A stretch of 64,000 nucleotides of DNA from Patescibacteria group bacterium (lineage in GTDB: Bacteria; Patescibacteriota; Patescibacteriia; JBAZBY01). Made by a program: the position numbers and the translations under genes. The notes beneath the pieces are model-generated. The model was given only the letters and a program-made list of their open reading frames with translations, searched no databases and had not been told where the DNA came from. Shown one piece after another: positions 22,286 to 60,109 of the stretch; positions within the stretch are counted from its first letter, which is position 1, and every line of letters starts with the position of its first letter. The stretch covers positions 558,940 to 622,939 of the forward strand of contig JBAZBY010000001.1 in NCBI GenBank assembly GCA_041671225.1, given 5' to 3'.

Positions 22286-22327
22286 ATTGTCTGTCTATTT
22301 TGTCATTTTTAAGTTGTGCGAAGTGCG

Positions 22328-22792: not shown

Positions 22793-22854
22793 AGATTATT
22801 TTAGTTGAACGTTTTGGGCTGGCCGTGTTGGGTGATGTAAAAAATTCTCGGGAC

Positions 22855-23346: not shown

Positions 23347-23562
23347 AATGATTTTTTGTTGTTAAAAGTAGAAATTTTTATTTCGTTTAGCGGAGCAGGA
23401 TATCTGATGGATTGCGGAGCAAAAATCTTAGTGGGAGATAGCCGAGCCCATACCGTCTATTCCTTGTTATATGAAAGTGAGTATAACGCAGTGGAGCGAA
23501 AGCACAGCGTTCCCTTGCGCAGGACGCAGAACACCCCCGCTTACAATCATGAAGAGCAAAAT

Positions 23563-24159
23563 TTAACGTTGTATCGAATAGACTTTATTCAGAATTGGAG
23601 TAACTATCGTTCCGAGAACATCTAAGATCGCGAATACTCCTAGCAATCTAAAATAAAATTCACCCATATCATGAGCTTCATTAAGCACAAGTATTATAAA
23701 CATTATCGCGACAATTGAAGTGAAAATTACTGTTGCCGATAAAGCGATACGGACGAATGATTTTTCAGACTTGATGAGTAAGAGTAAACAGGAATGTGCA
23801 GTGCTTGCAGCAAGAATGATGAATATGATTAAAGCTTTCCACGTAGAATCACCATATAGATCAAAGACTTCCCAGATTACCAGTACGGTATACAGAAAAC
23901 CGATAATGGAGATCGCCATTCCAGATAATGCGAGTGGGATGAATTTTCTTCTTTCATACAGAACAGAACAGCAGAGACCGGTTAAACTGTACCCTCCTAT
24001 AGTTAAGGTAGTCATGAGCAAGCTAAATTCAGTGTCACCAAAATCTCCAAGCAGGAAAACGAAAATTCCGATCAGCGCACTGATACTGAGAGAAATGATC
24101 ATCGTGATAAGGAGTGTTTTTTTGAAATGAAAATTTTGTCCCATACTCGTTCTATTCAT
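23563..24159 (-). CDS. Hypothetical polytopic membrane protein
   Basis: Five to six hydrophobic helices throughout; AT-rich. Confidence 0.5.
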   Translation of the reverse strand: MNRTSMGQNFHFKKTLLITMIISLSISALIGIFVFLLGDFGDTEFSLLMTTLTIGGYSLTGLCCSVLYERRKFIPLALSGMAISIIGFLYTVLVIWEVFDLYGDSTWKALIIFIILAASTAHSCLLLLIKSEKSFVRIALSATVIFTSIVAIMFIILVLNEAHDMGEFYFRLLGVFAILDVLGTIVTPILNKVYSIQR

Positions 24160-24337
24160 TGGTAAATGTTATGAACTTTTTTATTTGCAAAGTGAAGGGG
24201 TATTCGAGTGGTATGTCATTTAACGTCCGCGCGTAGCCGATGGTTTCTGGTGTTATCATATGCCGCAGAGCAGCAAAACACCAGAAACTATGCGTGAGGT
24301 TTTTTGGAGAGGACGATAAAATTCTGCCCCCAACCAT

Positions 24338-44300: not shown

Positions 44301-46032
44301 TAGCGTGGCACCGAGCTTTGCTGATTGCGATATCGAATGTTCGCCAATCACGGGACATCCGTTTGGCTGCGCAAGCGTTGGTTGGCTTTCATTTGAGCGG
44401 AACACGGATCCATTACTTTCCACTGGCCGGCCGCCATGTGATAATGGCAGTACCGGACCATGTCTTGGCGATCTTTACAGCACCGCTGGCACAAGCCAAA
44501 CATATACTGCAGCAGTAGACTTTGATACCGGCATTATGAGTGGATGGGGTCGTCTTCTTTCCCTTGCAAGTACCATTAATGAAACGAATGTGACGCCAGG
44601 TGGTTGGGTGAAGTTTCTTGGTTCTGAAGTATCAGGTTTTACAGGGGACCTCTATGAGTGCGTGAATTGTCAGGAAAGCGCACTTGGATATCATTGCCGA
44701 CTGTGCTTTTTGCCGGATCCAACCGTCGGAAATCCATTTCCTGGTCTTTGCAGCCGCACAACGCCTGCAAACCCCGGTGAATGTACGGGAAGGTGCTCAA
44801 ACGACCTTAGTGGCACATGCACAACAGATGCAACGTGCGGAGCAGGGGAAGCGTGTCTACCAAACGGGTGGTGTGACGGAGTTGTCGGCGCTTCTGCATG
44901 TTTTTCAAATAGTGATTGCCCGGGAACCGAATGTACGAATATTGGATTTACCTGCGACACAACCAGCGCGACCTGCTATCGCTATGGCACGGGATTGGAT
45001 ACTTCTTCCGGAAAGTTTCATGGTTTCGCATGGAGCAATGACGTAGGATGGGTAGATATGTCACGCGTGCGGTATGGTAACCAGCCGTGGTTTCAAACAC
45101 TGCAGGGGAATATTTTTTCTGCTGACAATGTTGGCGACGCATCCAATGTGACGCCCGTAAAATGCAATGCAACATATCGCATCACTGCCGTGGGGACTCT
45201 GGAAAATGTTTGCTCCGCATCAGCAGCAAACCCATTTGAGGTGCCGTTTGAAGTTGATGCAGATCTAGGAGATAATCTCATCACCTCTGATAGCGATAAA
45301 AGCCTGGAGACGGTCTTTGGCGCGACAGATCTTGCTGGTTTACTGAATGACAATGACGGTGATTTTATACCAGACGCGTTTGGCATTGGTAAGGGAAGGT
45401 ATGCCAGTGAACTTGTTAATCTTAATAATGGGCCAACCCGCACAATCTTTGATGCGCAGCTTGGGGGGGGAGGTCTTTTGCTCGACAATAAGGTGTATTA
45501 TTACTGCGGAGAACCGTGTGGAAACAGCACATTGGAACTGAGCGATGGGCTCATTTTAAATGGTACCGCAGATGATGAATCAGGGGATGGCACGCTTGTG
45601 GTTCTTGGAGATCTGATCTTCATTGGGGATATTCTTTATAAAAATGTGCAGGTAGATTCTCTGACGCAACTCGCATCCCTTGGCATCATTGTTCTGGGGG
45701 ATGTGCAAATAAAGAATAGCGTCAATGAAATCGATGCGACATTGTATGCACTTGGGAATCCAGCCTTAGGCGTCGTAGGACAAGACCCACTTGCCGGACG
45801 ACGCGCAGGTACCATTCGTATTGATGGCGGAACAAGCGCCCAGTATGTGCATCGCGGTCTTATGATTGCCAGAGAATTCAGCTTCAAGCGCGTCTATGGC
45901 GGTTTGCTTTCTGATCCAGATTCAGCAGAAAAGGTCATTTATGATGGACGTGTTGTGGCAAATCCGCCGCCAGGATTCACCACACTCCAAAAGGCACTTC
46001 CTCTACTGCGTCAGTCCGTCCCTACGAACTAG
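41329..46032 (+). CDS. Giant (1567 aa) secreted protein P6 with a Cys-rich module and a beta-helix-like C-terminal region
   Basis: N-terminal TM/signal; about 30 Cys clustered in 'CVNCQESALGYHCRLC...CSRTT...CTGRCSND..CTTDATCGAGEAC...CFSNSDCPGTEC'; C-terminal 'LVVLGDLIFIGDILYKN..LGIIVLGDVQIKN'. Confidence 0.6.
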   Translation: MPQILQHKSFPYVMTLLVLLSGVLLGVLYGSPVWAAWIQTPVLEGYENAVIHDIVMLEKSPDNTPENTPYVGYAVGQLDGTQTAGAIILYYNGVSWSHLYSDEHLGILRGVDARYDGTKPEVIAVGDYTVSSGYPTPDFNTIIHGVNNIFSIQTYQEIGGVAGAHDRCNPIIELNCKSWVADGTDLVDAAFGDQAIIHRYEGGACAGTLQDDGLFIIGDTQDYGGITGIRGTFLVGQRCVDSSSHDVMWVMRDQLSNPYYPTLFSSLATPIVGNFTAMTYAGHSSYFIAADRATESKASLFKFSMDAGTTGFKEVSTSGVQFNDAGGVRTIESLSAVLEPGPAADAKGPYWHVYATTATDGNADTGVVHLGIYGDAASGLSDGLAHTRFSTSKPISDVGAVIQYRGGNILANSNFTGTHENNAHLPEGWHSSDSIATLYDTTIHATDVVDNPSAPEGPSGKVLQLAQELIENANESAAVQFWTDNTFTTRVTTTQNELAHPFIGSLDADALLGTVPGSNAFRITGFFKGHPSDTYDFQLSLTHPGDTHARLFIGNKIADSNGDFDDANAIADKWTATAPGFGQFTFDGAGGEILDSMTLGDGAGVRESEGYYPFVFEFARDNELIVGRSVTLQWKKDGSATYDPFNPAMRVGNSSLIDGGLGQQAASEQPLPHMRGPKGPAYLVKGKVRVAKAPDAFFNANDRDPRKPGRAWGGIYTRCEDPAWGDCGFNWSIETIDPKVESDTLTTEDPGTGGWREFQYILAKTGEAQNYMTVVCYAEYGVKTWCADFSIEPVQEATQATAPRYMLFASSPDGSIFSGNAELPGTMTLKEEVSGTVALRAIDVASPVKGAAGGDHGGLFDIIPGLVQGWGWVGATTTGTSKDALGWISFSCADSNQCNEHQLSYGVNLGSALPGNLHPLDGAAWFGTTDVNQVRQLDGAPIAKDSVCTGDDRYICSHYVPDPGDPGAPADANAFCQSLGAGTCPAASQVCSVAPSFADCDIECSPITGHPFGCASVGWLSFERNTDPLLSTGRPPCDNGSTGPCLGDLYSTAGTSQTYTAAVDFDTGIMSGWGRLLSLASTINETNVTPGGWVKFLGSEVSGFTGDLYECVNCQESALGYHCRLCFLPDPTVGNPFPGLCSRTTPANPGECTGRCSNDLSGTCTTDATCGAGEACLPNGWCDGVVGASACFSNSDCPGTECTNIGFTCDTTSATCYRYGTGLDTSSGKFHGFAWSNDVGWVDMSRVRYGNQPWFQTLQGNIFSADNVGDASNVTPVKCNATYRITAVGTLENVCSASAANPFEVPFEVDADLGDNLITSDSDKSLETVFGATDLAGLLNDNDGDFIPDAFGIGKGRYASELVNLNNGPTRTIFDAQLGGGGLLLDNKVYYYCGEPCGNSTLELSDGLILNGTADDESGDGTLVVLGDLIFIGDILYKNVQVDSLTQLASLGIIVLGDVQIKNSVNEIDATLYALGNPALGVVGQDPLAGRRAGTIRIDGGTSAQYVHRGLMIAREFSFKRVYGGLLSDPDSAEKVIYDGRVVANPPPGFTTLQKALPLLRQSVPTN

Positions 46033-46106: not shown

Positions 46107-47321
46107 ATGAGTCTGTTTGGGGGTAAAAAGAGCTATGTCGGCGTTGATATCGGTACTTCGTCCATAAAGGTAACGGAATTCACTGATGATCGCGGACGTC
46201 CACGGCTCGTAACATATGGATTTGCCGACCAGCCAATTGAGGTTTTAAAGTCTGATACGCCGGAATCACGTGAATATGTCACGCAGTCACTGAAGGCGAT
46301 ACTCAAGAAGGCGCACATTTCCTCAACCCAAGCAGTTGCTGCGCTGCCGAATTTTTCCGTGTTTTCATCCATCATTTCCTTACCGGAAATGAGCAAGAAA
46401 GATCTTTTTTCTGCTGTACGCTGGGAAGCAAAGAAATTCGTTCCAATGCCGCTCGAGGAGATGGTTCTGGACTGGCGGGTATTGAAGACGGAAGAGCAGC
46501 ATGCTGCGGCTGCCAAGGCAGCGCTGGAGCCGGCAATGGCAGGTATGCCAGATACAATACCAAGACCCGGCATTCCATCCGCAGCTGGAGCACCAGAATC
46601 CCTCTTTAAGGCGTCCAGTCAGAGCGAGGGTGAAATCAAAGAAGAGCACAAAGAGTTGGGTAAAGAGGGTCAGACAGGCAAAAATCTTCGCGTACTTATT
46701 ACCGCCGCACCCAAAGGGCTCGTTGAAAGGTATATTCAGATTTTCAAAGGCGCCGACCTGCAAATGAAAAGCCTTGAGACGGAAGCATTTTCACTCACAC
46801 GTTCATTGATTGGCAGCGACCCTTCACCCATTTTATTGGTTGATATTGGTGCAGTGACAACAACGATCAGTATTATCGTTGATGGCATTCCCATGATGAA
46901 CAAGAGTATTGATGTCGGTGGCGAAACAATCACACAAGCCATCACTACAAGTCTTCATGTTGAGCATCGTCGAGCGGAGCAGTTTAAGCGGGATTTTGGC
47001 CTTGCCACCTCCAGCGGGCCAGCAACACAGGTTCCCAAAACGATCGAATTCACTTTTTCTTCCATTGTGAATGAAATGCATTACGTGTTGAATCTTTTTC
47101 AAAGCCAGGAACACATTGTGCCGGAAAAAATCATTCTTGCCGGCGGTTCTGCTTTTCTTCCCAATCTTATTCATCACCTTGAGACAGAAATGAACATGCG
47201 CGCATTTATTGGGGATCCTTGGGCCCGCGTGGTGTATCCAAAAGATCTTCAGCCTTTGCTCGCAGAAATCGGTCCACGCTTTGCCGTGGCAGCAGGATTA
47301 GGAATGCGAGAGATACTCTAA
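46107..47321 (+). CDS. pilM: Type IV pilus assembly protein PilM (actin-like ATPase fold)
   Basis: 'KSYVGVDIGTSSIKVTEF' N terminus, 'ILAGGSAFLPNL', about 400 aa; first gene after P6. Confidence 0.85.
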   Translation: MSLFGGKKSYVGVDIGTSSIKVTEFTDDRGRPRLVTYGFADQPIEVLKSDTPESREYVTQSLKAILKKAHISSTQAVAALPNFSVFSSIISLPEMSKKDLFSAVRWEAKKFVPMPLEEMVLDWRVLKTEEQHAAAAKAALEPAMAGMPDTIPRPGIPSAAGAPESLFKASSQSEGEIKEEHKELGKEGQTGKNLRVLITAAPKGLVERYIQIFKGADLQMKSLETEAFSLTRSLIGSDPSPILLVDIGAVTTTISIIVDGIPMMNKSIDVGGETITQAITTSLHVEHRRAEQFKRDFGLATSSGPATQVPKTIEFTFSSIVNEMHYVLNLFQSQEHIVPEKIILAGGSAFLPNLIHHLETEMNMRAFIGDPWARVVYPKDLQPLLAEIGPRFAVAAGLGMREIL

Positions 47322-47328
47322 AAAAACA

Positions 47329-48402
47329 ATGCCAGATATCAATCTCACGCCTGAAGGGAGCAGTAGCGAGAAGCGCAAGAACGCAAAGCGCAAGAATTTT
47401 GAATACACTGATCCTGAGAAGGAAAAACAGCGCAAGGATGAACGCAAAGCGCCGGGAGGCCTTCGCGTCTGGATGAAGTCATTGCTACGACGCACTCCTC
47501 CTGGTAAACGCAGTGACGATGCAATGCCGGAGTCATTGACACCGCCTGAATTCAACACAACCAAACACGACGAAAACGTTGAGGACATTTTTGGCACTGT
47601 GGACGTGCCTGCAAAAGAGCGCGCAAAAGCCAAGGAGCAGAAGCAGGAAGTGCCGAATACGCCAAAGGCGCCAAAGCTCAAAAAACTTCCAGAAAAGAAG
47701 GAAGAAAAGAAAAAGGAGGAGAGAAGGATCGATGGCATGAACCTTTTGCCGGAAGAGTTTTCAACGAAGATTGATTTTCGCGGTCGTGGTATTTTGCTCA
47801 GCCTTGTTCTGGGTGCAACAGTCGTCTTTATTGCTCTGGCGTATGGGGGTCTTATTATTTATGAGAATGTGATTGCAAATCGCACCCGCGAAGCAACAGA
47901 TACTCGCATTGCCATTCAGCGCGATATTGAAGCGCTTGAATCCGAGCAGCTTGCAAGTATTGCTTTTCGGGAGAAGCTCGATCTCGCTGAAGCACTGCTG
48001 AATCAGCACGTGTATTGGACGAAGTTTTTTGCGTTATTAGAAAAGTACACCATTGATGATGTGTATTTCAGCGGATCCCTCCTCCTTTCAGAACCAGGAA
48101 CCTTCACGCTGTCCGGAATAGGTCGTGACTATACATCTGTTGTTCGCCAGCTTCTCGCCTTCCGACAGGCGATTCAGAGTCAGGAGTTTATTAGCTCTGT
48201 CAAAATTAACGGTGCTCAGCAAACTCAAGACAGCAGTGGAGCTATCGCGACAACATTCACCGCGGAGCTTACATTGTTACCCAATGTCAATACATATACT
48301 GCCGAGGAATATCTGACAAAGCCATCCGTCATCTCCATACCGCAATCATCCAATACAAATAGCAATACTGTTGATTCTGATAATCGACCTGCAACGCTAT
48401 GA
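47329..48402 (+). CDS. pilN: PilN-like pilus assembly protein with about 135-aa Lys/Glu-rich N-terminal extension
   Basis: Internal canonical 'MNLLPEEF' (47737) followed by TM 'ILLSLVLGATVVFIALAYG' and coiled region; INLLP-like 'DINLTPE' also at the extreme N terminus. Confidence 0.7.
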   Translation: MPDINLTPEGSSSEKRKNAKRKNFEYTDPEKEKQRKDERKAPGGLRVWMKSLLRRTPPGKRSDDAMPESLTPPEFNTTKHDENVEDIFGTVDVPAKERAKAKEQKQEVPNTPKAPKLKKLPEKKEEKKKEERRIDGMNLLPEEFSTKIDFRGRGILLSLVLGATVVFIALAYGGLIIYENVIANRTREATDTRIAIQRDIEALESEQLASIAFREKLDLAEALLNQHVYWTKFFALLEKYTIDDVYFSGSLLLSEPGTFTLSGIGRDYTSVVRQLLAFRQAIQSQEFISSVKINGAQQTQDSSGAIATTFTAELTLLPNVNTYTAEEYLTKPSVISIPQSSNTNSNTVDSDNRPATL

Positions 48403-49100
48403 AGCTTTCCCTTCGTCTTAATGCAGTGACTTCATTTTTGAACAAGCAATTTCGCTGGGCTATGCTTGGGATTGTTGCGGTCCTGCTCATTTTTGGCTTT
48501 ATGGTGCTTATCATTCCAAAGTGGCAGGAGCTGAGTAAACTCGGTCTTATTACATTAGAGCGCGAACGAGAACAAACAGTGCAAGCGGAAGAGTATCTTG
48601 GAAACTTACGTCGCTCTCTTGATGAATTTCGGCTGATCAGTGATACAAAGATTGCGCAGCTGGAGCAAGTGCTTCCTACTGAATTTGATGTTGCGCCGCT
48701 GTTTCTTGAAATGGAATCGCTTTTTAATGCCGCTGGATACGCGTTGAACAGTATCGATATTCTTGATCAAGGCGCGCAGAAGGCTTCGACTGCCGCTGTA
48801 CAGCAGTCGAACACAGGACAAAGCGCTGTTGTACGAGAACTCATCACAAGGGCACAGAAGAATGCCGAGGTGGTATCTCGCAATGAGAAGCTTCGCGTTA
48901 TTCAAATATCACTTTCATTGACTGGCGCGCAGGATTACAAGGGTATCAAGAAATTACTCACAACAATTGAGCAGCATCAACGTCTTATGGATATTCGTTC
49001 GGTGGGGATATCCGTTGGCGGGAAGGATATCACTGAGGAAACCGCAACTGCGGAGGGACAAATTTCCTTCACAGTCAATATTTATTACTTCGCAGAATAG
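48399..49100 (+). CDS. pilO: PilO-like pilus assembly protein
   Basis: Start overlaps pilN stop; TM 'WAMLGIVAVLLIFGFMVLII', coiled coil and C-terminal domain. Confidence 0.65.
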   Translation: MKLSLRLNAVTSFLNKQFRWAMLGIVAVLLIFGFMVLIIPKWQELSKLGLITLEREREQTVQAEEYLGNLRRSLDEFRLISDTKIAQLEQVLPTEFDVAPLFLEMESLFNAAGYALNSIDILDQGAQKASTAAVQQSNTGQSAVVRELITRAQKNAEVVSRNEKLRVIQISLSLTGAQDYKGIKKLLTTIEQHQRLMDIRSVGISVGGKDITEETATAEGQISFTVNIYYFAE

Positions 49101-49106
49101 CGACTT

Positions 49107-49397
49107 ATGGCACTTGCGCAACGTAGCAATACACGACGAACGATCATCCTGGCCGCCGCCCTGGGCGTGGTGCTGATCGCCGGGGGAGTGTATCTGTACA
49201 TCCAAAATAAACCGGATGAAACCATCATTGATCCATCAGCGATACTTGTGAACGCGAGCCAGAACCTTCCCATTATCTCAACCTTCTCGGATACGATCTT
49301 TGATGATCCGCGCTTTCAGGATCTGGTTTTTCGCGCGCCGCAGGAGATCACCATTGGCAATCTTGGTAAGGATAATCCTTTTCAGCCTACGTTTTAA
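49107..49397 (+). CDS. Small membrane-anchored pilus assembly protein (PilP-like position)
   Basis: 96 aa, TM 'IILAAALGVVLIAGGVYLYI', located between pilO and pilB. Confidence 0.4.
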   Translation: MALAQRSNTRRTIILAAALGVVLIAGGVYLYIQNKPDETIIDPSAILVNASQNLPIISTFSDTIFDDPRFQDLVFRAPQEITIGNLGKDNPFQPTF

Positions 49398-49400
49398 TCC

Positions 49401-51161
49401 ATGCCAGCGCCTCAAGCTATCACAAGCGTTTCAACGAGCATCGGTGATATTTTAATCAGTCAGGGATTAATCACCAAAGAGCAGCTCGCAGAAGCAGAGC
49501 AAAAAGCACAGCAGGACGGCAGTTCTGTTGAGCAACATTTAGCTGAGCTCCCTGGTATGCGCGAGGATGAAGTTGTAAGGGCAAAGGGGCAGCTGTACAA
49601 CGTACCCTATGCTGATCTTTTTGGGCGTATTGTTCGCGCAGAAATACTCAATTTGATTCCGCAGAACATCGCCAATACGTACCACATGGTGACTTTTGCC
49701 CGTGAAGCGAATGAAGTGTCACTCGCCATGCTCAATCCTTCTGATTTTAAGGCTCTTGAGGCGATCGAATTTATCGCACGGAAGAATCGGTTGACCGTGA
49801 AGTACCACATCACGACAAAGGCGTCGTTGGGGTATATTCTTCGTCAGTATGAGTCGCTTTCTGCTGAGGTAGAAGAAGCATTGAAGGGCGCAGAGGAGGA
49901 AGCAACAGAACGTCAGGAGGCGCTCGTTGCGTCCGATGACAAGAGTTTTGAAGAAGTGGTGCGTCAGGCGCCGGTATCAAAGATGGTTTCTGTTATCATG
50001 CGGCACGCGGTGGAAGGCGGCGCATCAGACGTTCATATTGAGCCGCTCGAAGAAGAAACGCGGGTACGTTTTCGCGTTGATGGCATGTTGCATACTTCCA
50101 TTGTTCTCCCGCCGAATGTGCACAACTCACTCGTTGCTCGCATCAAGGTGCTTTCCAGGCTCAAGATCGATGAAACGCGCGTTCCGCAGGATGGACGTTT
50201 TCGCATGAATATTGATGGTAAGGATATCGACTATCGCGTGTCCACCTTACCGCTCATGAACAATGAAAAAGTCGTGATGCGTATTTTGGACACGTCAAAC
50301 CGCATGACAATGCTTTCTGATCTCGGTTTTGAAGGGAAGAATCTTGAGAAGATGGAGGCCAACTCACTGAAGTCACACGGCATGTTCCTGATCACCGGCC
50401 CGACTGGTTCCGGTAAGTCCACAACGCTGTATGCGCTCATGTCGCGGTTGAATAAAGACGAAGTAAACATCATTACGCTGGAAGATCCGGTGGAATATTA
50501 CATGCATGGCATTAACCAGTCACAGGTGAATCCGGAAGTCGGTCTTACCTTTGCTGCGGGTTTGCGCTCCATTTTGCGTCAGGACCCGGACATCATCATG
50601 GTTGGGGAAATCCGCGATAATGAAACCGCTGAACTGGCAGTTCATGCTGCGCTCACCGGTCACATCATGCTTTCTACTCTGCACACCAATGATGCTTTTG
50701 GAGCCGTGCCACGTCTCATTGATATGGATATTGAACCATTCCTTATCACCTCCTCACTCAATCTTGTGATGGCCCAGCGACTCGTGCGGCGTGTCTGCCA
50801 GCATTGCACGGAGGAGCGCACTATTGCGGAAGGGCTTGAGAAGGCAGTGCGAGATGAGCTGAAGAATGTTGACCCGAAGGAAATTCCCAGATCACTTGCC
50901 GGTGAACTCAAGTTCATGTATGGACGTGGTTGTCCGCGCTGCGAGAACACGGGCTACAAAGGACGCGTCGCAATTGCTGAAGTACTCGAAATGAGTGACG
51001 AGTTGAAGCGTATTATCGTTGACGCAAAGCAGGATCTCATTGGTTTGATTCAAGCAGAATTCAAGCGCCAAAAAATGCTTACCATTAAGCAAGATGGCAT
51101 GGTGAAGGTACTGCACGGCTCAACAACCATTGAAGAGGTGCTGAACGCAACACGATCTTAA
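49401..51161 (+). CDS. pilB: Type IV pilus assembly ATPase PilB (GspE family)
   Basis: N-terminal GSPII 'ILISQGLITKEQLAEAEQ'; Walker A 'GPTGSGKSTTLYA'; Walker B-type 'IIMVGEIRDNETAE'; His box 'GHIMLSTLHTNDA'; tetra-Cys 'CQHC...CPRC'. Confidence 0.9.
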   Translation: MPAPQAITSVSTSIGDILISQGLITKEQLAEAEQKAQQDGSSVEQHLAELPGMREDEVVRAKGQLYNVPYADLFGRIVRAEILNLIPQNIANTYHMVTFAREANEVSLAMLNPSDFKALEAIEFIARKNRLTVKYHITTKASLGYILRQYESLSAEVEEALKGAEEEATERQEALVASDDKSFEEVVRQAPVSKMVSVIMRHAVEGGASDVHIEPLEEETRVRFRVDGMLHTSIVLPPNVHNSLVARIKVLSRLKIDETRVPQDGRFRMNIDGKDIDYRVSTLPLMNNEKVVMRILDTSNRMTMLSDLGFEGKNLEKMEANSLKSHGMFLITGPTGSGKSTTLYALMSRLNKDEVNIITLEDPVEYYMHGINQSQVNPEVGLTFAAGLRSILRQDPDIIMVGEIRDNETAELAVHAALTGHIMLSTLHTNDAFGAVPRLIDMDIEPFLITSSLNLVMAQRLVRRVCQHCTEERTIAEGLEKAVRDELKNVDPKEIPRSLAGELKFMYGRGCPRCENTGYKGRVAIAEVLEMSDELKRIIVDAKQDLIGLIQAEFKRQKMLTIKQDGMVKVLHGSTTIEEVLNATRS

Positions 51162-51172
51162 CTATTATTCGT

Positions 51173-51586
51173 ATGTCAAAAAATACATCCAACAAAGGAC
51201 AAAGAAAAGCAAGTCGTATTTTACTTGTGGAGGATGATTCGTTCCTTGCTGGCATGTATGTGACAAAGCTCACACTGGAAGGTCTTTCCGTTGAGCTTGC
51301 GACAGATGGCGCAAAGGGACTCAAGATGGCGCAGGAGATGAAACCGGACATCATTCTTTTGGACATCATTCTTCCAAAAATGAGCGGTTTTGATGTTCTC
51401 AAAAAGCTGCGAGAAAACAAGGAAACAAAGGACGTGCCTATTCTGCTTTTGACGAATCTTGGGCAGAAAGAGGACGTTGAGAAGGGTCTGAAGCTTGGCG
51501 CAACAGATTATCTTATCAAGGCGCATTTTCTCCCTGATGAGGTGGTCACAAAAATTATCGCTACACTCAAAGGCAAGAAATCATGA
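51173..51586 (+). CDS. Single-domain response regulator (PilH/CheY-like) embedded in the pilus operon
   Basis: 'ILLVEDDSF', 'DIILLDIILPKMSG', 'DYLIKA'. Confidence 0.8.
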   Translation: MSKNTSNKGQRKASRILLVEDDSFLAGMYVTKLTLEGLSVELATDGAKGLKMAQEMKPDIILLDIILPKMSGFDVLKKLRENKETKDVPILLLTNLGQKEDVEKGLKLGATDYLIKAHFLPDEVVTKIIATLKGKKS

Positions 51587-52653
51587 GCACCGATTCAGGC
51601 ATCACCATTGAACGTATTGTTGGCGCTGCCGCAGAATACGGCGCGTCGGATGTCCACTTGACCGTTGGCAACCCGCCGATTCTCCGCGTGGATGGAAAAC
51701 TTGTTTCACTGGATCAGGAAGAAATTGTTACGCCAGATTTTACCGAAGAGGTAAAGAAGGCCGTTCTCACAGAGGAGCAGCAGCAGCGCCTCATGGAGCA
51801 GCGCGACATCACCATTGCATATACCATGCCAAACAATACGCGCTTCAAGGTAGATGCGTATTTTCAACGCGGCGCGCTTTCCATCAGTTTTCGTTCTATT
51901 GGCAAGAAGATTCGGACTATTGATGAACTCGGCCTTCCATCACAGCTCAAGGCATTCGCAAAACTGGAGAAGGGATTGGTTCTTATCACGGGCCCGTTTG
52001 GGTCCGGGCGAACAGCAACAATGGCGGCATTGGTTCAGGAGATCAACAAAACGCGCGCAGAACACATTGTCACCATTGAGAAGCCGATCGAGTATTTATA
52101 CATGAATACAAAGAGCATCATTGAGCAGCGTGAGATCGGCGTGGACGCTGTTTCTGTTGAGCAGGCAATCCACACGGCCGCACGCGAGGATGTGGATGTG
52201 ATCGTTGTTTCAGAGATGGAAACGCGTGAAGAAATTGATGCAGCGCTCACGGCGGCAGAATCAAGCCATCTCGTGCTTTCAACAATGAATACCGATTCTG
52301 TATTGCGCACGATTGAAAAAATTATCAATGCCTTTCCGCAGGACGAGCATGAAAAGGTGCGTACAGAACTCGCCGGAACCCTGCAGGGGATCCTCAGCCA
52401 ACGATTACTCTCAAAAGTGGGTGGCGGTCGCGTTGCCGCGGTGGAGGTTATGATTCCAACAGATTCACTCCGTGCGGTTATTCGCGATGGCGCTTTGGTG
52501 CAGCTCCCCAATCTCTTGCAAACATCGCGTGAAGCAGGGAGCATTCCCATGGATGTTGCGCTTGGTGAGCTCGTACGCGCGGGCACTGTTTTGCAGGAGG
52601 ATGCCATGATGCACACAAGTAACAAGAGCAGTTTGCGCGCAATGCAGCTCTAA
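51583..52653 (+). CDS. pilT: PilT-like retraction ATPase homolog with a non-canonical Walker A and His box
   Basis: 'GLVLITGPFGSGRTATMAAL' (Arg in the Walker A Lys position), 'DVDVIVVSEMETRE', 'AAESSHLVLSTMNTDS' (Asn where the second His-box His is expected). Confidence 0.8.
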   Translation: MSTDSGITIERIVGAAAEYGASDVHLTVGNPPILRVDGKLVSLDQEEIVTPDFTEEVKKAVLTEEQQQRLMEQRDITIAYTMPNNTRFKVDAYFQRGALSISFRSIGKKIRTIDELGLPSQLKAFAKLEKGLVLITGPFGSGRTATMAALVQEINKTRAEHIVTIEKPIEYLYMNTKSIIEQREIGVDAVSVEQAIHTAAREDVDVIVVSEMETREEIDAALTAAESSHLVLSTMNTDSVLRTIEKIINAFPQDEHEKVRTELAGTLQGILSQRLLSKVGGGRVAAVEVMIPTDSLRAVIRDGALVQLPNLLQTSREAGSIPMDVALGELVRAGTVLQEDAMMHTSNKSSLRAMQL

Positions 52654-52667
52654 CGATCATCGTTTTT

Positions 52668-53876
52668 ATGGCCGTTTTTGATTACAAGGCAAAAGACCTT
52701 TCCGGTGCATCAATCACCGGCGTGGTTGAAGCGCCTTCTGAGGCAGTGGCGCAGGACGTGCTCAAGGAGCGTGACCTTGTGGTGCTTTCGCTTTCTGAGC
52801 GCAGAAAGATGCGCTTGTTTCAGTCATCGCTCGGTTTTCTGAATAAGGTGCCTCGTCGCGACATTGCGCTCTTTGCGCGGCAGCTGGCTGTGATGATTTC
52901 TGCAACGGTGCCGATTGTGCAAGCATTGCGCATTTTGACAAAGCAGACAGAGAATGTGAACTTCAAGATTATCATTTCAGAGATCGCTGATGAAGTGGAT
53001 GGCGGCGCAAAGCTTTCTGCGACACTCGCGCGATACCCAAACCTGTTTACGGACTTTTTTATCCACATGGTTCGTGCCGGCGAGACAACCGGCAAGCTCG
53101 ATGAAACGCTGAACTATCTCGCGGATCAGGAAGAAAAAGACTACGACCTGAACTCAAAGATCAAGGGCGCAATGACATACCCGATCTTTATTCTGATCAC
53201 GTTGGTTATCGTGGGCATCTTGATGATGATTTTTGTGATTCCTCGGCTCTCCAGCATTCTGGAAGAAAGCGGACAAGAACTCCCGCCGCTTACCAAGCTT
53301 TTGATCGGTACAAGCACTTTTTTGCAGAATTTCTGGTGGGTGCTGGTTATTCTGGCGGTTGGCGGCTGGCTTGGGTATCGCTTTGCCATGCAGCGCCCAG
53401 AGGGGAAGCGCGTGTTGGATCGCGTGAAGATGCATGCCCCTGTTTTTGGAGCCATTTTTCAGCATATGTATCTCGTGCGGTTCGCGCGGTCGCTCTCTAC
53501 TCTTGTATCGTCTGGCATTCCTATTACGCAGTCACTTTCTATTGTTGCGGACGTTGTGGGGAATAGCGTGTATCGCGATCTCACAATGGAAACGATCAAG
53601 GAGATCGAGGGAGGAAACTCCATTTCAACTGTTTTTTCGCGAAGTAAGGACATTCCTATCATGCTTTCTCAGATGCTTGCCGTTGGTGAGCAAACCGGGA
53701 AGCTGGACATGATCTTGGACAGACTTGCCGCGTTCTACGCGCGTGAACTGGAGAATCTTGTTGCGAATCTTGTGAGTCTCATTGAGCCGCTCATTCTTCT
53801 TGTGATGGGAGCGGCGGTTTCTATTCTCGTTGTTGCGATCATGATGCCGCTGTATAGCCTTTCATCTGCAATTTAG
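52668..53876 (+). CDS. pilC: Type IV pilus platform protein PilC (GspF family)
   Basis: Two GspF repeats, 3 TM, 402 aa. Confidence 0.9.
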   Translation: MAVFDYKAKDLSGASITGVVEAPSEAVAQDVLKERDLVVLSLSERRKMRLFQSSLGFLNKVPRRDIALFARQLAVMISATVPIVQALRILTKQTENVNFKIIISEIADEVDGGAKLSATLARYPNLFTDFFIHMVRAGETTGKLDETLNYLADQEEKDYDLNSKIKGAMTYPIFILITLVIVGILMMIFVIPRLSSILEESGQELPPLTKLLIGTSTFLQNFWWVLVILAVGGWLGYRFAMQRPEGKRVLDRVKMHAPVFGAIFQHMYLVRFARSLSTLVSSGIPITQSLSIVADVVGNSVYRDLTMETIKEIEGGNSISTVFSRSKDIPIMLSQMLAVGEQTGKLDMILDRLAAFYARELENLVANLVSLIEPLILLVMGAAVSILVVAIMMPLYSLSSAI

Positions 53877-54050
53877 GTATCACAAAATGTTGGAATATGG
53901 TATAATGTTATTGGAAAGGGAAAGTTGTGGAAAGTTATCCACAGCTTTCGTTTGCCAAAAATATTAAATATTAAGTTACTGACGCAATTTTGAAGGCCGC
54001 GCGCGAGCCTTTACATTTCGGCGGTAACGCCAAAGAAAGGGGGTGACGAC

Positions 54051-54665
54051 ATGACCAATCAAAAGAAAGGATTTACGCTCATTGAATTGCTCGTCGTAAT
54101 CGCAATCATCGGTATTCTTTCAGCAATCGGTCTCGTCTCGCTCAATGGAGCGCGAGAAAAGGCACGCGACGCACAGCGTAAGAGCGACCTTGGTCAGATG
54201 AATACGGCACTCGTGTTGTATTTTGATGACAACAACAGCACGTATCCGATTCAAGATAACTTGGATGGAGAAATGGACACCCATGCTGATTGTATTACCG
54301 GAGATTCAACCCCGGTTATCGTACGCCCAGAAGCAGATAATACGACTTACACCGTAGGCGGTGCTGTGAATGCCACAGCCACAGCGACGGTTGTGAGCAT
54401 CTGGGATACCGCAGCAAATGGTTCTCCGATGATAACGGATTATCTCAGCCGACAGTTGGTTCCGCCAGGCGGTGGTACAGGTTGGAACAACGTGTACTGT
54501 TATGACACTAATAGCAGCACCGGTTTAGTTGCTGGGAATTCGTATGTTCTCTACGCCGGCCTTGAAGCAGGAGCAGGAGACACATTCTTCTCACTCAATG
54601 CTAATGGGGACTCTGATACAACCATCCCCCCAGCATGCGCCGCGGGAGCCGATTGTGACGTTTAG
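54051..54665 (+). CDS. pilA: Type IV pilin (major-pilin candidate 1)
   Basis: Prepilin '[31 protein letters not shown]', Glu at +5; C-terminal Cys pair; strong RBS 'aagggggtgacgac ATG'. Confidence 0.85.
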
Positions 54666-54687
54666 CTGATCTGTAGTTTGATCTACA

Positions 54688-54722
54688 CCAAAGACCCACA
54701 CGCGTGTGGGTCTTTTGGTGTA
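54688..54722 (+). terminator. Rho-independent terminator hairpin after pilin 1
   Basis: 'caccaaagacccacacgcgtgtgggtcttttggtg' perfect 14-bp stem followed by T-rich tract. Confidence 0.6.
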
Positions 54723-54817
54723 GCATCTAGAATATATGGTTTTGTAGGAATCTCATGTGGTGTATACTATAGACATACTTAATTTCAAATATTTCTTGAA
54801 CGAAAGGGGGTGACGAC

Positions 54818-55402
54818 ATGACCAATCAAAAGAAAGGATTTACGCTCATTGAATTGCTCGTCGTAATCGCAATCATCGGTATTCTTTCAGCAATCGGTCT
54901 CGTCTCGCTCAATGGAGCGCGAGAAAAGGCACGCGACGCACAGCGTAAGAGCGACCTTGGTCAGATGAATACGGCGTTGGTCCTCTACTACGATGATCAT
55001 TCTAGCCAGTATCCTGCGCAGACAGCGACTGATGCTGTTACTGATGCAGACTGCATTGATTCTACTGGCGCGGTGACGTATCCGCAGGCAAAGGATGCAG
55101 TATCACCACTTGTGAACCAGACTGGCGGCGCACTGAATCTGTGGCTTAGTACTGGCGGAATAGTTCCAACATATTTGAGTCGTGAACTAGTCCCACCAAC
55201 AGGCGAAGACTGGAGCGACATCTACTGCTATGACACGAATGAGGCACATGCCACCAGCCCGTACAGTTCATATGTCATTTATGCTGGACTTGAAGCAGGC
55301 ACCGGACTCAACGCCTTTACGCTGAATAGCGCTGGTGATAGTGACGAAGATGCCACGTTGCCAGTTGCGTGCACAGCTCAGGACACGTGCCTTATTGATT
55401 AA
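54818..55402 (+). CDS. pilA: Type IV pilin (major-pilin candidate 2), tandem paralog with 5' half identical to pilin 1
   Basis: First 57 residues plus RBS identical to 54051 gene; C-terminal domain diverged but conserves 'YCYDTN' and 'YAGLEAG' blocks and the terminal Cys pair. Confidence 0.85.
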   Translation: MTNQKKGFTLIELLVVIAIIGILSAIGLVSLNGAREKARDAQRKSDLGQMNTALVLYYDDHSSQYPAQTATDAVTDADCIDSTGAVTYPQAKDAVSPLVNQTGGALNLWLSTGGIVPTYLSRELVPPTGEDWSDIYCYDTNEAHATSPYSSYVIYAGLEAGTGLNAFTLNSAGDSDEDATLPVACTAQDTCLID

Positions 55403-55491
55403 CGCATAGGCGCGCGATACGCAAGACCCTGCTTCACTAGCGGGGTCTTTGGGTTATGCGAATATATGGCGGTTTATGATATACTAGCAGT

Positions 55492-56085
55492 ATGTCCATA
55501 CTAGGATTCCTTGCAGTTATCACGCCGATTTTCTTTTCGCTGTATTGGCTTTTGCTTTTTTTCCGCATGGTACGTGTCGGAAGCAAAACACAGAGCGTGT
55601 ATCTTTTGAGCGGAGTTGTACTGTATGGACTTTCCATCATTGTGGTGTTTGCGGCACGGGCAGGTATTATTCAGGAAAACGCCTCTCGCGGCCAGCTGGG
55701 GACATATTTGCTCGAGACGTCATTTTATTCAGACAGCCTTGTGCGCCTTGTGCCGCAGTATCTTGCCGCAGTCATAGGTGCGGCGGTTCTTTGGTTGTTC
55801 CTTTTGGGGCTGCGCAAAATCTCCCGTCGCAACTTTTATGACTCACAAGAGGCCGGCATGATTGCCGTGGGCGCGCTGATGGCAGGTTGGCCGGGGGTCT
55901 TTGTGTTCCTTGCGCTCCTCTTTTTTCTTGTGTTGCTTGCGGGGGTTATGCATGTGCTGTTGAAGCAAAGCCAAACAAGCGACCGGTTTGTTATTGGACC
56001 CATGATACCCGTTGCTGCCATTGCGGTCATCTGGCTGGGCACGCTTTTGCTTCATGTTACAGGCCTTGATGTCATTCGTTTTTAA
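55492..56085 (+). CDS. Hypothetical polytopic membrane protein in the pilin cluster
   Basis: About 6 hydrophobic helices; no recognised motif. Confidence 0.45.
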   Translation: MSILGFLAVITPIFFSLYWLLLFFRMVRVGSKTQSVYLLSGVVLYGLSIIVVFAARAGIIQENASRGQLGTYLLETSFYSDSLVRLVPQYLAAVIGAAVLWLFLLGLRKISRRNFYDSQEAGMIAVGALMAGWPGVFVFLALLFFLVLLAGVMHVLLKQSQTSDRFVIGPMIPVAAIAVIWLGTLLLHVTGLDVIRF

Positions 56086-56527: not shown

Positions 56528-57271
56528 GTGTTTATCGCACTCATTTTTCTTTTTGGCCTCTTTTTCGGCAGCTTTCTCAACGTTGTCATTAATCGCCTGC
56601 ACACAGGCGAGCAGTTTTTGAAGGGACGTTCCCATTGCCCGCATTGCCGGCATGACCTCTCTTCCGCGGATCTCATACCCGTCATAAGCTATCTCACCTT
56701 GCGTGGCCAGTGTCGGTATTGTCATAAGCACATCTCGCCGCAGTATCCGCTCGTGGAGTTTGCAACGGGGATTGCGCTTGCCATTGCTGCCGCAGCGCTT
56801 GGATGGGGAGTTCCTTTTCTTTTTGCAGCACTTGCCACACTTTTCCTCGTTGTCCTTTTTGTTTTTGATCTGAAGCATCATTTGATCCTTGATGTGGTGA
56901 GCTATCCCTTTGCGGTACTTGCGCTCATTGCGGGTTTTCTTTTTGGCCACACGTATCTGGACATTCTGATCGGCGGCGTGATCGGCGGAGGATTCTTTCT
57001 TGCGCAGATTCTTTTTTCGCGCGGGCGTTGGGTCGGCGGCGGCGATGCAAAGCTCGGCATTGGCATGGGTTTTTTGCTTGGTTGGGATGGCGTGCTCCTT
57101 GCGCTTTTTTTGGCTTATATCTCCGGCGCGATCATCGGAAGCATTCTTCTTCTTTCCCGCAAAGCTACGCCACGTTCTGCAATTCCCTTTGGTACGTTTT
57201 TGACACTTGCAACATATATTGCGATGCTCTGGGCAGATCCCATTCTTCTTTTTTATGACCACCTTGTTTAG
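56528..57271 (+). CDS. pilD: Prepilin peptidase (A24 family), GTG start
   Basis: N-terminal TM, tetra-Cys 'CPHCRH...CRYC', catalytic-Asp context 'VGGGDAKLG'. Confidence 0.85.
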   Translation: MFIALIFLFGLFFGSFLNVVINRLHTGEQFLKGRSHCPHCRHDLSSADLIPVISYLTLRGQCRYCHKHISPQYPLVEFATGIALAIAAAALGWGVPFLFAALATLFLVVLFVFDLKHHLILDVVSYPFAVLALIAGFLFGHTYLDILIGGVIGGGFFLAQILFSRGRWVGGGDAKLGIGMGFLLGWDGVLLALFLAYISGAIIGSILLLSRKATPRSAIPFGTFLTLATYIAMLWADPILLFYDHLV

Positions 57272-57333: not shown

Positions 57334-57975
57334 ATGAGCCAACAACCCACAACCCACAACCCACAAACAGGCTTTACGCTCATTGAGCTCACTATTTCCA
57401 TCGCCATTTTTGGTATTCTTGCGGTAACCGTACTCACAGGGTTTCGCAATGCGGATAGAATTGAGGCATTTCGTCATGATGCAAGTCTTCTTGCGTCAGA
57501 TCTGCGTGCAGTACAGAATCGCGCCCTTGCTGGCGCTTTGGACAACAGCGGTGAATTCCCACGAGGCGGGTATGGTCTTCGTATTGAAGAATGTAACACC
57601 CCTCCCTGTACGTATCTTTTTTGGCGAGAAAAAGATGATCCCCCAGATCAACGCATACTTGATCTAACCGGGACAGAGGTGCAAGGCACGACAATGATGT
57701 CCAAGTATACAAAGGTTCTTTCGGTGGTCGTGCAGGATCCGGGTGGCTTGAATCAATCGCAAGCAACGCAAGCGCAAATGTCTTTTAAGCCACCGCGCCC
57801 TACGCCATTTGTGTGGTGGGCTGCTCCTCCAGGAGAGCCGCAACCGATTCCCGCAACAAACGGGATCGAAGGTAAACAGGTGATGATCACCCTTTCTTTT
57901 ACTGATGACCCTACTATTCAGCGCGTGATAGAGGTAAAGGGTATTTCAGGACAAATAAGCGTCTATGCTCCATAA
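57334..57975 (+). CDS. Minor pilin / pseudopilin
   Basis: '...TG|FTLIELTISIAIFGILAV'. Confidence 0.7.
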   Translation: MSQQPTTHNPQTGFTLIELTISIAIFGILAVTVLTGFRNADRIEAFRHDASLLASDLRAVQNRALAGALDNSGEFPRGGYGLRIEECNTPPCTYLFWREKDDPPDQRILDLTGTEVQGTTMMSKYTKVLSVVVQDPGGLNQSQATQAQMSFKPPRPTPFVWWAAPPGEPQPIPATNGIEGKQVMITLSFTDDPTIQRVIEVKGISGQISVYAP

Positions 57976-58561
57976 GCAGCAAAAAGGACAAACCATGATT
58001 GAGGCCGTCGTTGCCGTAGGCATATTACTTGCGGGAGTGACCGCGTTGATCACGCTTTCTATTGCCACGCTCAAGGCAGATCAAATAAGCAGCAGAAAAA
58101 TTGTTGCTATTAATCTTGCCCGTGAAGCGCTTGAAGTTGCACGCAATGTGCGTGATTCGAATTGGCTTGCAGGGAGGCATGATGATTGTTCTGGGACGCT
58201 GGCAGATGATACGGATAATTGGTTTTATGGTTTAGAGGGCCAGCCCTTCGGTTCTTGCGGTGTCGTACCCACTGAGTATTTTCCGCAACTGGAGACGGTT
58301 TCTGGCGTTTTAACCTTTGAGCGTGTTGCAGACCCGCTTGATAAGGATGTGTATTTGACGAGTGCAGGGTTATACAATCAGGATCTCTTGACACCCGTTG
58401 GTACAAAAACCATATACCGACGCTGGGTCACCGTCGCGCCGCAAACCATAAGTTCGCCGAAGATTAATTACGTCGATCTTACTGCTCATGTGGAGTACAC
58501 ATTAGATAATAGAATCCACTCGGTTGAGCTCGCGACCAGACTTTATAACTGGAAGCCATGA
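57965..58561 (+). CDS. Pilin-like protein with variant N-terminal motif (PilV/PilW-like)
   Basis: 'KGQTMIEAVVAVGILLAGVTALITL' with Glu at +5. Confidence 0.55.
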   Translation: MLHKQQKGQTMIEAVVAVGILLAGVTALITLSIATLKADQISSRKIVAINLAREALEVARNVRDSNWLAGRHDDCSGTLADDTDNWFYGLEGQPFGSCGVVPTEYFPQLETVSGVLTFERVADPLDKDVYLTSAGLYNQDLLTPVGTKTIYRRWVTVAPQTISSPKINYVDLTAHVEYTLDNRIHSVELATRLYNWKP

Positions 58562-59223
58562 TACGCATACCAAAAAAAGGCGAGAAAGGTTTTACGTTAC
58601 TTGAGCTTCTTATTGTAACGGCTATTTTTGCCCTGACGGTCGTGTTGGCAGTGGATATTTTTATTGTGCTTACCAAGCTTCAACGGAAAACGTTCACCTC
58701 GCAGCGGTTGCAGGGTGATGCGCGGTTTGTGATGGAATTGATCGCCAAGGATGTGCGTTTGGGGCAGATTGATTATGAATTTTATGACCAACTCAGCAGC
58801 CTTTATGGGATCACCATTGACCTCACAACGTCAACAAATCTCCTTGCACTACGCGACGCGCAAGGAGAATCTATCGTGTATCGACGGGCTGACCTGCAAG
58901 GGGATACTCTCTGGGATGAGCCATTAGGCAATGAGTGGAATGATCCGTCTGGCCCCGCCCTTGAAGTGTGTATTGGAGATTGCATTAGCAATACAAATTC
59001 CGTTTGGGAATCAATTACTCCAGAGGGTATTAAAGTTGTGAGTACGCATTTTTTCATAACCCCATCAGTGACGCCATTTGTGCCTGTTGCCGGCGTCTTT
59101 GCGAATGATGAGCAGCCGAAGGTTCTTATTCAGATTGGCACGCAGGGAGAGGGCTTCACCACCGAAGAACAAGGATTCATTTTCTTACAAACAACAGCCT
59201 CAACGCGTATTTATGAAAGGTAA
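58558..59223 (+). CDS. Minor pilin
   Basis: 'KGEKG|FTLLELLIVTAIFALTVVLAV'. Confidence 0.7.
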   Translation: MIRIPKKGEKGFTLLELLIVTAIFALTVVLAVDIFIVLTKLQRKTFTSQRLQGDARFVMELIAKDVRLGQIDYEFYDQLSSLYGITIDLTTSTNLLALRDAQGESIVYRRADLQGDTLWDEPLGNEWNDPSGPALEVCIGDCISNTNSVWESITPEGIKVVSTHFFITPSVTPFVPVAGVFANDEQPKVLIQIGTQGEGFTTEEQGFIFLQTTASTRIYER

Positions 59224-60109
59224 GAAAGACGAACAAGGCGTTGTCCTGATTCTTTCGTTGCTTTTACTCGCCGTCGTGACGGCCGTGGGTATTGGTGTTT
59301 CGTTGTTGGTGATTAATGAAGTGCGAAGCACGATTCGCATTGATGAGTCAGTGGTTGCAACGTATGCGGCCGAAGCAAAAATCGAAGAGGCGCTTGCGGC
59401 ACTCTCCACATATCGTCAGATTCCCGGCGCAACATTGGAAGCAGCGCTCGATGGGGCAGGGCCCCCACTCAATATCAGTGGCGTCAAGACCCTTGGAGGT
59501 ATTGTGCCCGTCGGCTCAGCGAATGCGATTGTCGATCTTACTCATTCCAGTTCAGGAGAGGCTTTTACGCTGACCACATTAGGGGAGAATCAGAGCGTTC
59601 AGTTCAATGTCCAGACTCCTGCTTGTTTCACCGATTATAACGACGAGACGTGCGTGAAGTATATCAAGTTTTCCGGTGAGCGCCTTGACTCAAGCGGCGT
59701 TGAGCCATGGATCGAAGTGACCGAGAGCGCTTTTTCCGTCGTCAGAACGCAAGAAACATCCGTGGTGAAGGAGCTTGTCTCGGAGTCTCAATTTGATGAT
59801 CCTGCAAATCCCTATTTCTATTCGTTCAAGGGTCTCTCGCCCTTAACCCTTCCCGCAGAAGTGCAGAGCGTCCGTCTTACATCCCTCTTTAATGGCGTGA
59901 AGAATTTGGAGATACGGGCTTTTACCGATGACACGGCAACGTGTACGGGCATTTGTCCGTCAGATCTGCTCGGGTACATTGTGATAAAGGCAGATTCCAG
60001 TTTTTCAAAATCAAAAATCAGCATCACGGCAGCGGTGCCATGGCAGCTGCCTTCGAGCGGGTTGTTCGATTATGCACTTTTTTCCGAAGAAACAGTACGG
60101 CAGGATTAG
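59213..60109 (+). CDS. PilX-like minor pilin / pilus tip-associated protein
   Basis: 'DEQGVVLILSLLLLAVVTAVGIGVSLLV' PilX-type N-terminal helix; overlaps upstream stop. Confidence 0.5.
   Translation: MKGKKDEQGVVLILSLLLLAVVTAVGIGVSLLVINEVRSTIRIDESVVATYAAEAKIEEALAALSTYRQIPGATLEAALDGAGPPLNISGVKTLGGIVPVGSANAIVDLTHSSSGEAFTLTTLGENQSVQFNVQTPACFTDYNDETCVKYIKFSGERLDSSGVEPWIEVTESAFSVVRTQETSVVKELVSESQFDDPANPYFYSFKGLSPLTLPAEVQSVRLTSLFNGVKNLEIRAFTDDTATCTGICPSDLLGYIVIKADSSFSKSKISITAAVPWQLPSSGLFDYALFSEETVRQD

Follow-up and report, generated by a model that had tools for sequence, protein, structure and literature searches.

Tandem, putatively major type IV pilin genes that share an identical 5' segment but differ in their globular domains in a Patescibacteria genome

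Concerted evolution of bacterial paralogues through gene conversion is exemplified by tufA and tufB, and non-reciprocal, RecA-type recombination between pilin genes by Neisseria, where the pilS donors have neither a promoter nor the constant 5' region, and where it is the variable part of the pilin that conversion diversifies. In Streptococcus sanguinis, two adjacent full-length major pilin genes, pilE1 and pilE2, belong to a secretin-less, monoderm-style pil cluster in which one PilD and one machinery serve both products. The N-termini of PilE1 and PilE2 are nearly identical, and both proteins are expressed and occur in comparable amounts in purified pili (PMC4832360); a later study reports a heteropolymeric pilus structure (PMC10628169), and some strains carry a third copy (PMC4832360; PMC10628169). 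Concerted evolution of paralogues has also been described for the tandem lpl cluster of Staphylococcus aureus (PMC2568036). Here, we describe two tandem type IV pilin genes, A1 and A2, in a stretch of 64,000 nucleotides (nt) from the Patescibacteria group bacterium assembly GCA_041671225.1 (contig JBAZBY010000001.1, positions 558,940 to 622,939 of the forward strand; hereafter, the window). The two genes begin with the same 174 nt, denoted repeat R, and then diverge, and their closest analogue is the pilE1/pilE2 pair of S. sanguinis.

Both open reading frames (ORFs) are intact and contain every residue conserved in the family; the two proteins carry a class III signal peptide, that is, a short basic leader ending in Gly, followed by a hydrophobic N-terminus with Phe+1 and Glu+5 of the N-methylation motif, and score 37.4 and 37.6 bits against PF07963, where the cut-off is 21.2 (Table 1). 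The proteins are 59% identical overall, with residues 1–57 identical and 46% identity beyond residue 57, and have in common the blocks YCYDTN and YAGLEAG, four cysteines and a C-terminal CxxxxxC, in agreement with the two blocks and the C-terminal disulfide loop pointed out in a preliminary description of the window. At the nucleotide level, the variable parts retain only two 30-nt patches at ~80% identity. An AlphaFold2 model of A1 (predicted local distance difference test score, pLDDT, 84.8) consists of a helix over residues 10–60 followed by a beta-sheet domain, and sequence matches to solved pilins are restricted to the helix. Look-ups of the exact proteins A1 and A2, of a partial A2 (P0007) and of a partial A1 returned no record, and peptide patterns from A1 gave a single match among species-representative genomes, in an unrelated member of Sedimentisphaerales. 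A1 and A2 are complete type IV pilins and are predicted to be major subunits, based on their location directly after pilC, their own promoter-like sites, strong ribosome-binding sites and terminators, and the presence of a sole pilin at this position in relatives.

The extent of the common segment was determined by comparing the window with itself at an offset of 767 and searching for the longest exact run, which is the 174 nt of R. At its 5' edge stands the ribosome-binding site GAAAGGGGGTGACGAC, 16 nt ahead of each ATG and bounded by a mismatch (A at 54034, C at 54801); the run continues through the ATG and codons 1–52 into the first two bases of codon 53. The next codons, 53–57 (A-L-V-L-Y), have all changed synonymously (GCA/GCG, CTC/TTG, GTG/GTC, TTG/CTC and TAT/TAC), and past R the ungapped identity drops to 20–40%. 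The exact run and the 46% C-terminal identity confirm what the preliminary description had recognized, namely, tandem pilin genes that begin identically and diverge in their C-terminal domains, with two corrections. The stretches that it read as identical, 54033–54214 and 54800–54981 (~182 nt), extend 2 nt too far at the 5' end and 6 nt too far at the 3' end, and its statement that the first 57 codons are identical holds for the amino acids, up to residue 57, but not for the nucleotides, given the synonymous differences in each of codons 53–57. A 48-mer of R occurs exactly twice in the window (0 of 100 shuffles), and none of the JGI metagenome contigs matched an exact 28-mer taken from the 3' end of R.

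A 174-nt repeat is difficult for short-read assemblers, and R could conceivably be an artefact of assembly or scaffolding, namely, a collapsed or mis-joined repeat. This explanation can practically be dismissed in view of three other samples from which the same strain was assembled separately, although these samples may not be independent populations. In ERZ27249449 (k = 141), the locus is divided among three contigs, the first ending at 54175, the second spanning 54068–54942 and the third starting at 54835, so that the breaks are located precisely 140 nt into R from each side, and the middle contig, at 875 nt, has the predicted length and equals the window. Two Logan assemblies with k = 31 break 29 nt into R. 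Breaks that occur at the edges of R in a k-dependent manner indicate a true two-copy repeat. In addition, NCBI places both proteins, with consecutive accessions, on a single contig of 1,028,488 nt (metagenome-assembled genome, MAG, of ‘Patescibacteria group bacterium’), and one public MAG contains A2 only as a ‘partial’ protein at a contig end.

Synonymous and non-synonymous differences were counted by the Nei-Gojobori method, and the controls were compared over the same 52 codons (156 nt). Across codons 1–52, A1 and A2 show 0 differences at 37.3 synonymous sites (proportion of synonymous differences, pS, of 0), whereas across the remainder of the genes pS is 0.875, that is, saturated, and the corresponding non-synonymous proportion, pN, is 0.379. 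Among the controls, pS over the same codons ranges from 0.51 to 0.83, and by our own arithmetic the probability of zero differences at 37 sites would be ~1e-11 even with pS = 0.5. One control is a third paralogue from the same genome, P0005 (MFA6944041.1), encoded at the orphan locus L001, which shares 45 of the 52 amino acids (aa) with R and differs from it at 42 nt and in 27 synonymous codons; with 73% nt identity to R, its 5' end has not been homogenised with those of A1 and A2. The orthologues from the metagenome loci L003 and L004, each ~72% identical to the window in nucleotide sequence from pilT to pilC, differ from R in 1 and 3 non-synonymous codons, at 22 and 28 nt, and in 18 and 22 synonymous codons, respectively, and the L005 orthologue in 4 non-synonymous codons, at 38 nt and in 27 synonymous codons. 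The synonymous divergence of the 5' ends is far below that of the rest of the genes and that of the orthologues, as is characteristic of gene conversion or concerted evolution, and the combination of a pS of 0 in the 5' part, saturation in the 3' part and diverged controls identifies R as a recent recombination tract. The recombination framework adopted in the preliminary description is thus supported, with the 5' identity itself being the footprint of the conversion or recombination tract.

Constraint on the protein was considered as the cause of the identity of R, given that the N-terminal ~50 residues are near-invariant across this pilin family, and was rejected: the paralogue and the orthologues keep the N-terminal protein and yet differ at 22–42 nt. 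Selection at the nucleotide level, acting for example on a small RNA target, a translation-initiation element or an mRNA structure, could maintain the identity without recombination and would be consistent with the start of the tract exactly at the ribosome-binding site, both in the window and at the distant locus L035 described below. However, such selection appears extremely improbable because the orthologues and the third paralogue change these 22–42 of the 156 nt while preserving the protein, because the short leader of A2 has no significant fold (z-score, z, +0.39) and no Rfam match (at gathering thresholds, Rfam matched two tRNAs only in the window, and nothing in the pilin untranslated regions, UTRs), and because the 5' edge of R falls just where homology ends and the upstream regions of the two genes become unrelated.

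The surroundings of the two genes and their globular domains bear on the history of the pair. In the relatives L003, L004 and L005–L010, the gene order is the same, with one pilin gene between pilC and a membrane-protein gene. The region upstream of A1 aligns with that upstream of the single pilin gene in L003 and L004, the common elements being the TGGTATAAT promoter-like site, the TGTGGATAA/TTATCCACA element and the hairpin AAGSCCGCGCGYGAGYCTT. In the window, a promoter scan places the A1 promoter-like site, ATCACA-16-TGgTATAAT, at 53879–53906, and the 5'UTR that follows (53915–54050) folds at -41.9 kcal/mol (z -3.2), contains the hairpin AAGGCCGCGCGCGAGCCTT, which is kept in L003 and L004, and may be a regulatory leader. 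The sequence 3' of A1 aligns with the sequence 3' of A2 and with that 3' of the single pilin gene in L003, L004 and L005; these downstream regions have in common a terminator, GAATATATGG and the hexamer TATACT, which in the relatives is located 6–9 nt before the ATG of the membrane-protein gene. Judged by this alignment, the A2 upstream region seems to be a copy, since diverged, of the promoter that the membrane-protein gene has close to the terminator. Folding energies indicate that the terminator hairpin assigned to each gene in the preliminary description is real in both cases (Table 1). The globular domain of A1 is nearest to that of P0002 from L003 (58%) and the domain of A2 to that of P0003 from L004 (51%), compared with 46% between A1 and A2, which rank only fourth and sixth for each other.

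The scenario that we consider probable is an old tandem duplication, or else an imported gene body, after which gene conversion recently affected the 5' end alone. A single ancestral major pilin gene, located between pilC and the membrane-protein gene, would have been duplicated in tandem, the duplicated unit having the ribosome-binding site at one end and, at the other, the promoter of the membrane-protein gene that follows; with these bounds, A1 would retain the ancestral promoter and 5'UTR, and A2 would depend on a copy of the membrane-protein gene promoter. The duplication would be old, or the body of one copy imported, because the globular domains, the terminators and the synonymous sites have diverged to the extent seen between species. 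The first 174 nt, from the ribosome-binding site through the leader to the filament-core helix alpha1, would have been overwritten recently by non-reciprocal gene conversion between the copies, with the tract halting where homology ends, that is, at the non-homologous UTR on the upstream side and at the fast-evolving domain on the downstream side. Purifying selection appears to keep the copies similar enough for homologous pairing in the 5' segment alone, which would explain why conversion does not extend beyond it, and conversion of the globular domain might be selected against if two surfaces are useful.

Alternatively, one gene body, probably that of A2, could have been captured from a related lineage via recombination anchored in the conserved 5' segment, in which case the 5' identity would date from this single integration rather than from conversion between resident paralogues. 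Such a capture would account for the affinity of each globular domain to the pilin of another species rather than to its neighbour and for the sharp breakpoint at codon 53. We nevertheless regard it as unlikely: the gaps between best matches are small (51% versus 46%), the homology of the regions 3' of A1 and A2 both to each other and to the relatives, including the terminator, GAATATATGG and TATACT, fits the duplication of a resident unit, and the 5'-only pattern at L035, together with the graded tracts at other loci, fits recurrent conversion.

Several points weigh against conversion between two resident, functional copies. The single-copy state of the relatives is known from short-read contigs, the copy count of R covers the 64-kb window of a 1.03-Mb genome, and intragenomic conversion is not fully separable from recombination that imports a foreign 3' part. 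Furthermore, the promoter scan yields consensus-level predictions, with 1 site in the region where chance alone would give 3.0; a Foldseek search with the globular domain against solved structures gave no significant match; and, as far as the sequence goes, one of the two genes could be silent.

Tracts of this kind recur in other lineages. Relatives were surveyed at 80 metagenome loci, and at least two neighbouring pilin-like genes were found in 46 of the 86 loci examined; the counts of multi-pilin loci and of tracts are lower bounds because perfect repeats longer than the assembly k-mer break contigs. At L035, which belongs to a distant lineage with 59% identity to A1 over residues 1–66, two pilin genes between pilC and pilD share an exact run of 180 nt (3485–3664 and 4147–4326), and here too the ribosome-binding site marks its start; the 5' part has a pS of 0 and the 3' part one of 0.84, and the C-terminal parts are 46% identical. 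Older or shorter tracts were detected at L061 and L087 (near-exact over ~115–130 nt of the 5' end, with few mismatches) and at L019 and L047 (~200 nt at ~90% identity), and this gradation across loci looks like episodic conversion followed by decay. Recent 5' conversion in tandem pilins is a familiar form of pilin-gene evolution, and it recurs in Patescibacteria.

Two other observations were made on the surveyed loci. At L044 and L042, five to seven consecutive pilin-like genes form arrays, 400–600 nt apart and with little 5' nucleotide homogenisation, showing that multi-copy pilin arrays occur in this family without concerted evolution. L009 (Ga0209726_10005984), from the P0004 lineage, encodes, after ~9.2 kb (from about 9180), MarC, a TonB-dependent receptor with a Plug domain and ExbB/ExbD/TonB in the place where PilD and minor pilins would be expected; such genes are odd for Patescibacteria, and the contig may be chimeric.

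The preliminary description had suggested antigenic variation. In a system of the Neisseria type, the variable part of one expressed pilin gene is repeatedly rewritten from silent donor cassettes. The tandem copies with a common segment and variable C-terminal domains, and the existence of a third paralogue elsewhere in the genome, would be compatible with such a system, and the locus resembles pilE/pilS in RecA-type non-reciprocal recombination between pilin genes and in the combination of a constant N-terminal part with a variable C-terminal one. We consider antigenic variation very unlikely, however. Unlike the Neisseria donors, both A1 and A2 are complete, each with a ribosome-binding site, an ATG, a promoter-like site and a terminator; the common segment is the 5' constant part, which is absent from pilS cassettes; and P0005, besides which no further close paralogue was found in the genome, is likewise a full gene, with a 5' end that has diverged. 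Neither promoterless variable-region fragments nor truncated cassettes, and hence no cassette archive, were detected within the window. The strain variation that the preliminary description proposed to look for was not seen either: the locus is 100% identical in four assemblies, the contigs of the three other samples matching the window over A1, the covered part of A2 and the flanks, without strain-level variants at the contig level. The tract homogenises the conserved part of the pilins and does not diversify the variable part.

The direct repeats of 174 nt, 767 nt apart, might also act as a recombination switch, such that unequal crossing-over deletes or re-duplicates the 767-nt unit, a possibility that we rate as quite improbable. 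If it were true, cells would toggle between a two-pilin and a one-pilin state, the latter with the A2 surface domain placed behind the regulated promoter and 5'UTR of A1; the pilus surface, and possibly host or phage specificity, would change in an episymbiotic bacterium, and the recurrence at L035 would reflect selection for the switch rather than a passive outcome of conversion.

Among the described systems, S. sanguinis resembles the locus most closely. Here too, two adjacent full-length major pilin genes with an identical leader and N-terminal helix (residues 1–57) are combined with a secretin-less, monoderm-style cluster and a single PilD and machinery. The differences are that co-assembly was demonstrated in S. 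sanguinis and is only inferred here, that the leader consists of 18 aa there and 7 aa here, and that the two bacteria belong to different phyla; furthermore, in the present pair only 57 residues are identical, with the globular domains at 46%, and the identity is demonstrated at the nucleotide level, with a sharp edge. With tufA/tufB and lpl, the pair shares partial homogenisation by homologous recombination and mosaic identity with sharp edges, but the gene family is another one and the converted segment matches a structural module, the filament-core helix. As in this genome, more than one major pilin per genome, giving rise to alternative filaments or functional specialisation, is on record for Legionella pneumophila (PilA1 and PilA2; PMC13170364), Thermus thermophilus (wide and narrow pili; PMC7203116) and Saccharibacteria (PilA1 and PilA2), where, in cultivated members, the pili mediate attachment to the host bacterium and TM7x has two major pilins in different loci (one and three), with two PilB ATPases named (PMC11623550). 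The abstracts and passages of these three papers describe no identical 5' tract at the nucleotide level (PMC13170364, PMC7203116, PMC11623550).

The converted module comprises the leader and most of alpha1, the part that is buried in the filament core. With these parts identical, one PilD should be able to cleave and methylate both subunits, and both should fit into a single lattice. A1 and A2 would have been given the same translation-initiation region, PilD site and core helix, and one machinery could process both. It is plausible that A1 and A2 form either a mixed filament, as do PilE1 and PilE2 of S. sanguinis, or two alternative filaments with different surfaces, a possibility already raised in the preliminary description; both genes would then be expressed, their products may co-assemble, and the arrangement may have adaptive value. 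Type IV pili rank with the best-conserved surface machines that Patescibacteria possess, and two major subunits with an identical core helix and very different exposed domains point to mixed or alternative surfaces that vary interactions with hosts or phages. Perfect repeats of 174–180 nt break short-read contigs right at the pilin locus, and tandem pilins are therefore probably under-counted in MAG-based surveys.

The pilin pair is part of a complete type IV pilus cluster that contains PilM, PilB, PilT, PilC and PilD, as recognized by Pfam, and in which no secretin was seen (Table 1).

Table 1. Features of the type IV pilus cluster in the window (positions are those of the window)
Feature	Coordinates	Strand	Evidence and remarks
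PilM	46107–47321	+	Pfam
Two unannotated ORFs	47329–49100	+	Within the machinery block 46107–52653
PilB ATPase	49401–51161	+	Pfam
Response regulator	51173–51586	+	Pfam
PilT ATPase	51583–52653	+	Pfam
PilC platform protein	52668–53876	+	PF00482 T2SSF, E 9e-63; immediately 5' of the pilins
A1 upstream region	53879–54034	+	Promoter-like site and structured 5'UTR of ~140 nt; putative function
Repeat R, copy 1	54035–54208	+	174 nt, exact; ribosome-binding site, 7-aa leader, mature residues 1–46 of A1
Pilin A1 (204 aa; MFA6943842.1)	54051–54665	+	ORF; PF07963 N_methyl, E 1.6e-9; leader MTNQKKG, then FTLIE...; 4 Cys
A1 terminator hairpin	54683–54723	+	-28 kcal/mol, z -6.9
A2 upstream region	54729–54801	+	-10-like TATACT at 54763–54768; putative, from alignment
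Repeat R, copy 2	54802–54975	+	Identical 174 nt at the start of A2; independent assemblies break inside
Pilin A2 (194 aa; MFA6943843.1)	54818–55402	+	ORF; PF07963, E 1.3e-9
A2 terminator hairpin	55422–55452	+	-21.1 kcal/mol, z -4.4
197-aa membrane protein	55492–56085	+	Synteny in L003, L004 and L005; no Pfam match
Pilin-like gene	ending 56524		Between the membrane-protein gene and PilD
PilD prepilin peptidase/N-methylase	56528–57271	+	PF06750, E 6e-32; PF01478, E 5e-13
Minor pilin-like block	57334–60109	+	57334–57975, 57965–58561, 58558–59223, ~59213–60109; PF07963 matches, L014 gene calls

The gene for the 197-aa membrane protein is apparently leaderless: the extended -10 element TGaTATACT ends 6 nt before its ATG (window 55480–55494), and the same element is found 6–9 nt ahead of the membrane-protein ATG, without a ribosome-binding site, in four lineages. 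The gene for the third paralogue, P0005 (192 aa, L001:8001–8579), is located outside the window and stands alone, away from the pilus cluster, among genes for Macro-domain, NUDIX, Fic/MazE-like and Zeta-toxin-like proteins and a type II restriction-methylase.

Elsewhere in the window, three long ORFs possibly encode surface proteins: one of 1567 aa (41329–46032), with no Pfam match, directly upstream of pilM; one of 1392 aa on the minus strand (15469–19647); and one of 1330 aa (26–4018) with repeated purple-acid-phosphatase-N/FN3-like domains. A low-GC island on the minus strand, at ~19800–24200 (GC content 0.33–0.36, versus ~0.50 elsewhere), encodes an MBOAT O-acyltransferase, an AlgX-like SGNH protein, a NUDIX hydrolase and a GNAT acetyltransferase, and is probably a laterally acquired cassette for surface-polymer acylation.

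The 5'UTR of A1 also contains a perfect DnaA-box-like 9-mer, TTATCCACA, at 53935–53943, with a partner, TGTGGAAAG, at 53926–53934; no such 9-mer is present upstream of A2. In many lineages of Patescibacteria, the first major pilin gene carries this 9-mer (TTATCCACA or TGTGGATAA, often GTTATCCACAG) in its promoter or 5'UTR, either just 3' of the -10 box or ~30–45 nt upstream of it. It was found 20–270 nt upstream of a pilin gene in 14 of the 80 survey loci, a 12-fold enrichment (binomial p 1e-8), and is located at 3398 in L003, 1732 in L004 and 3420 in L035 as well as at 13 other survey loci. A literature search pairing the DnaA box with pilin found nothing. The 9-mer also occurs at 9363–9371 of the window, and one copy is upstream of an ArsR/copper-ATPase operon; it may therefore be a general promoter-proximal operator.

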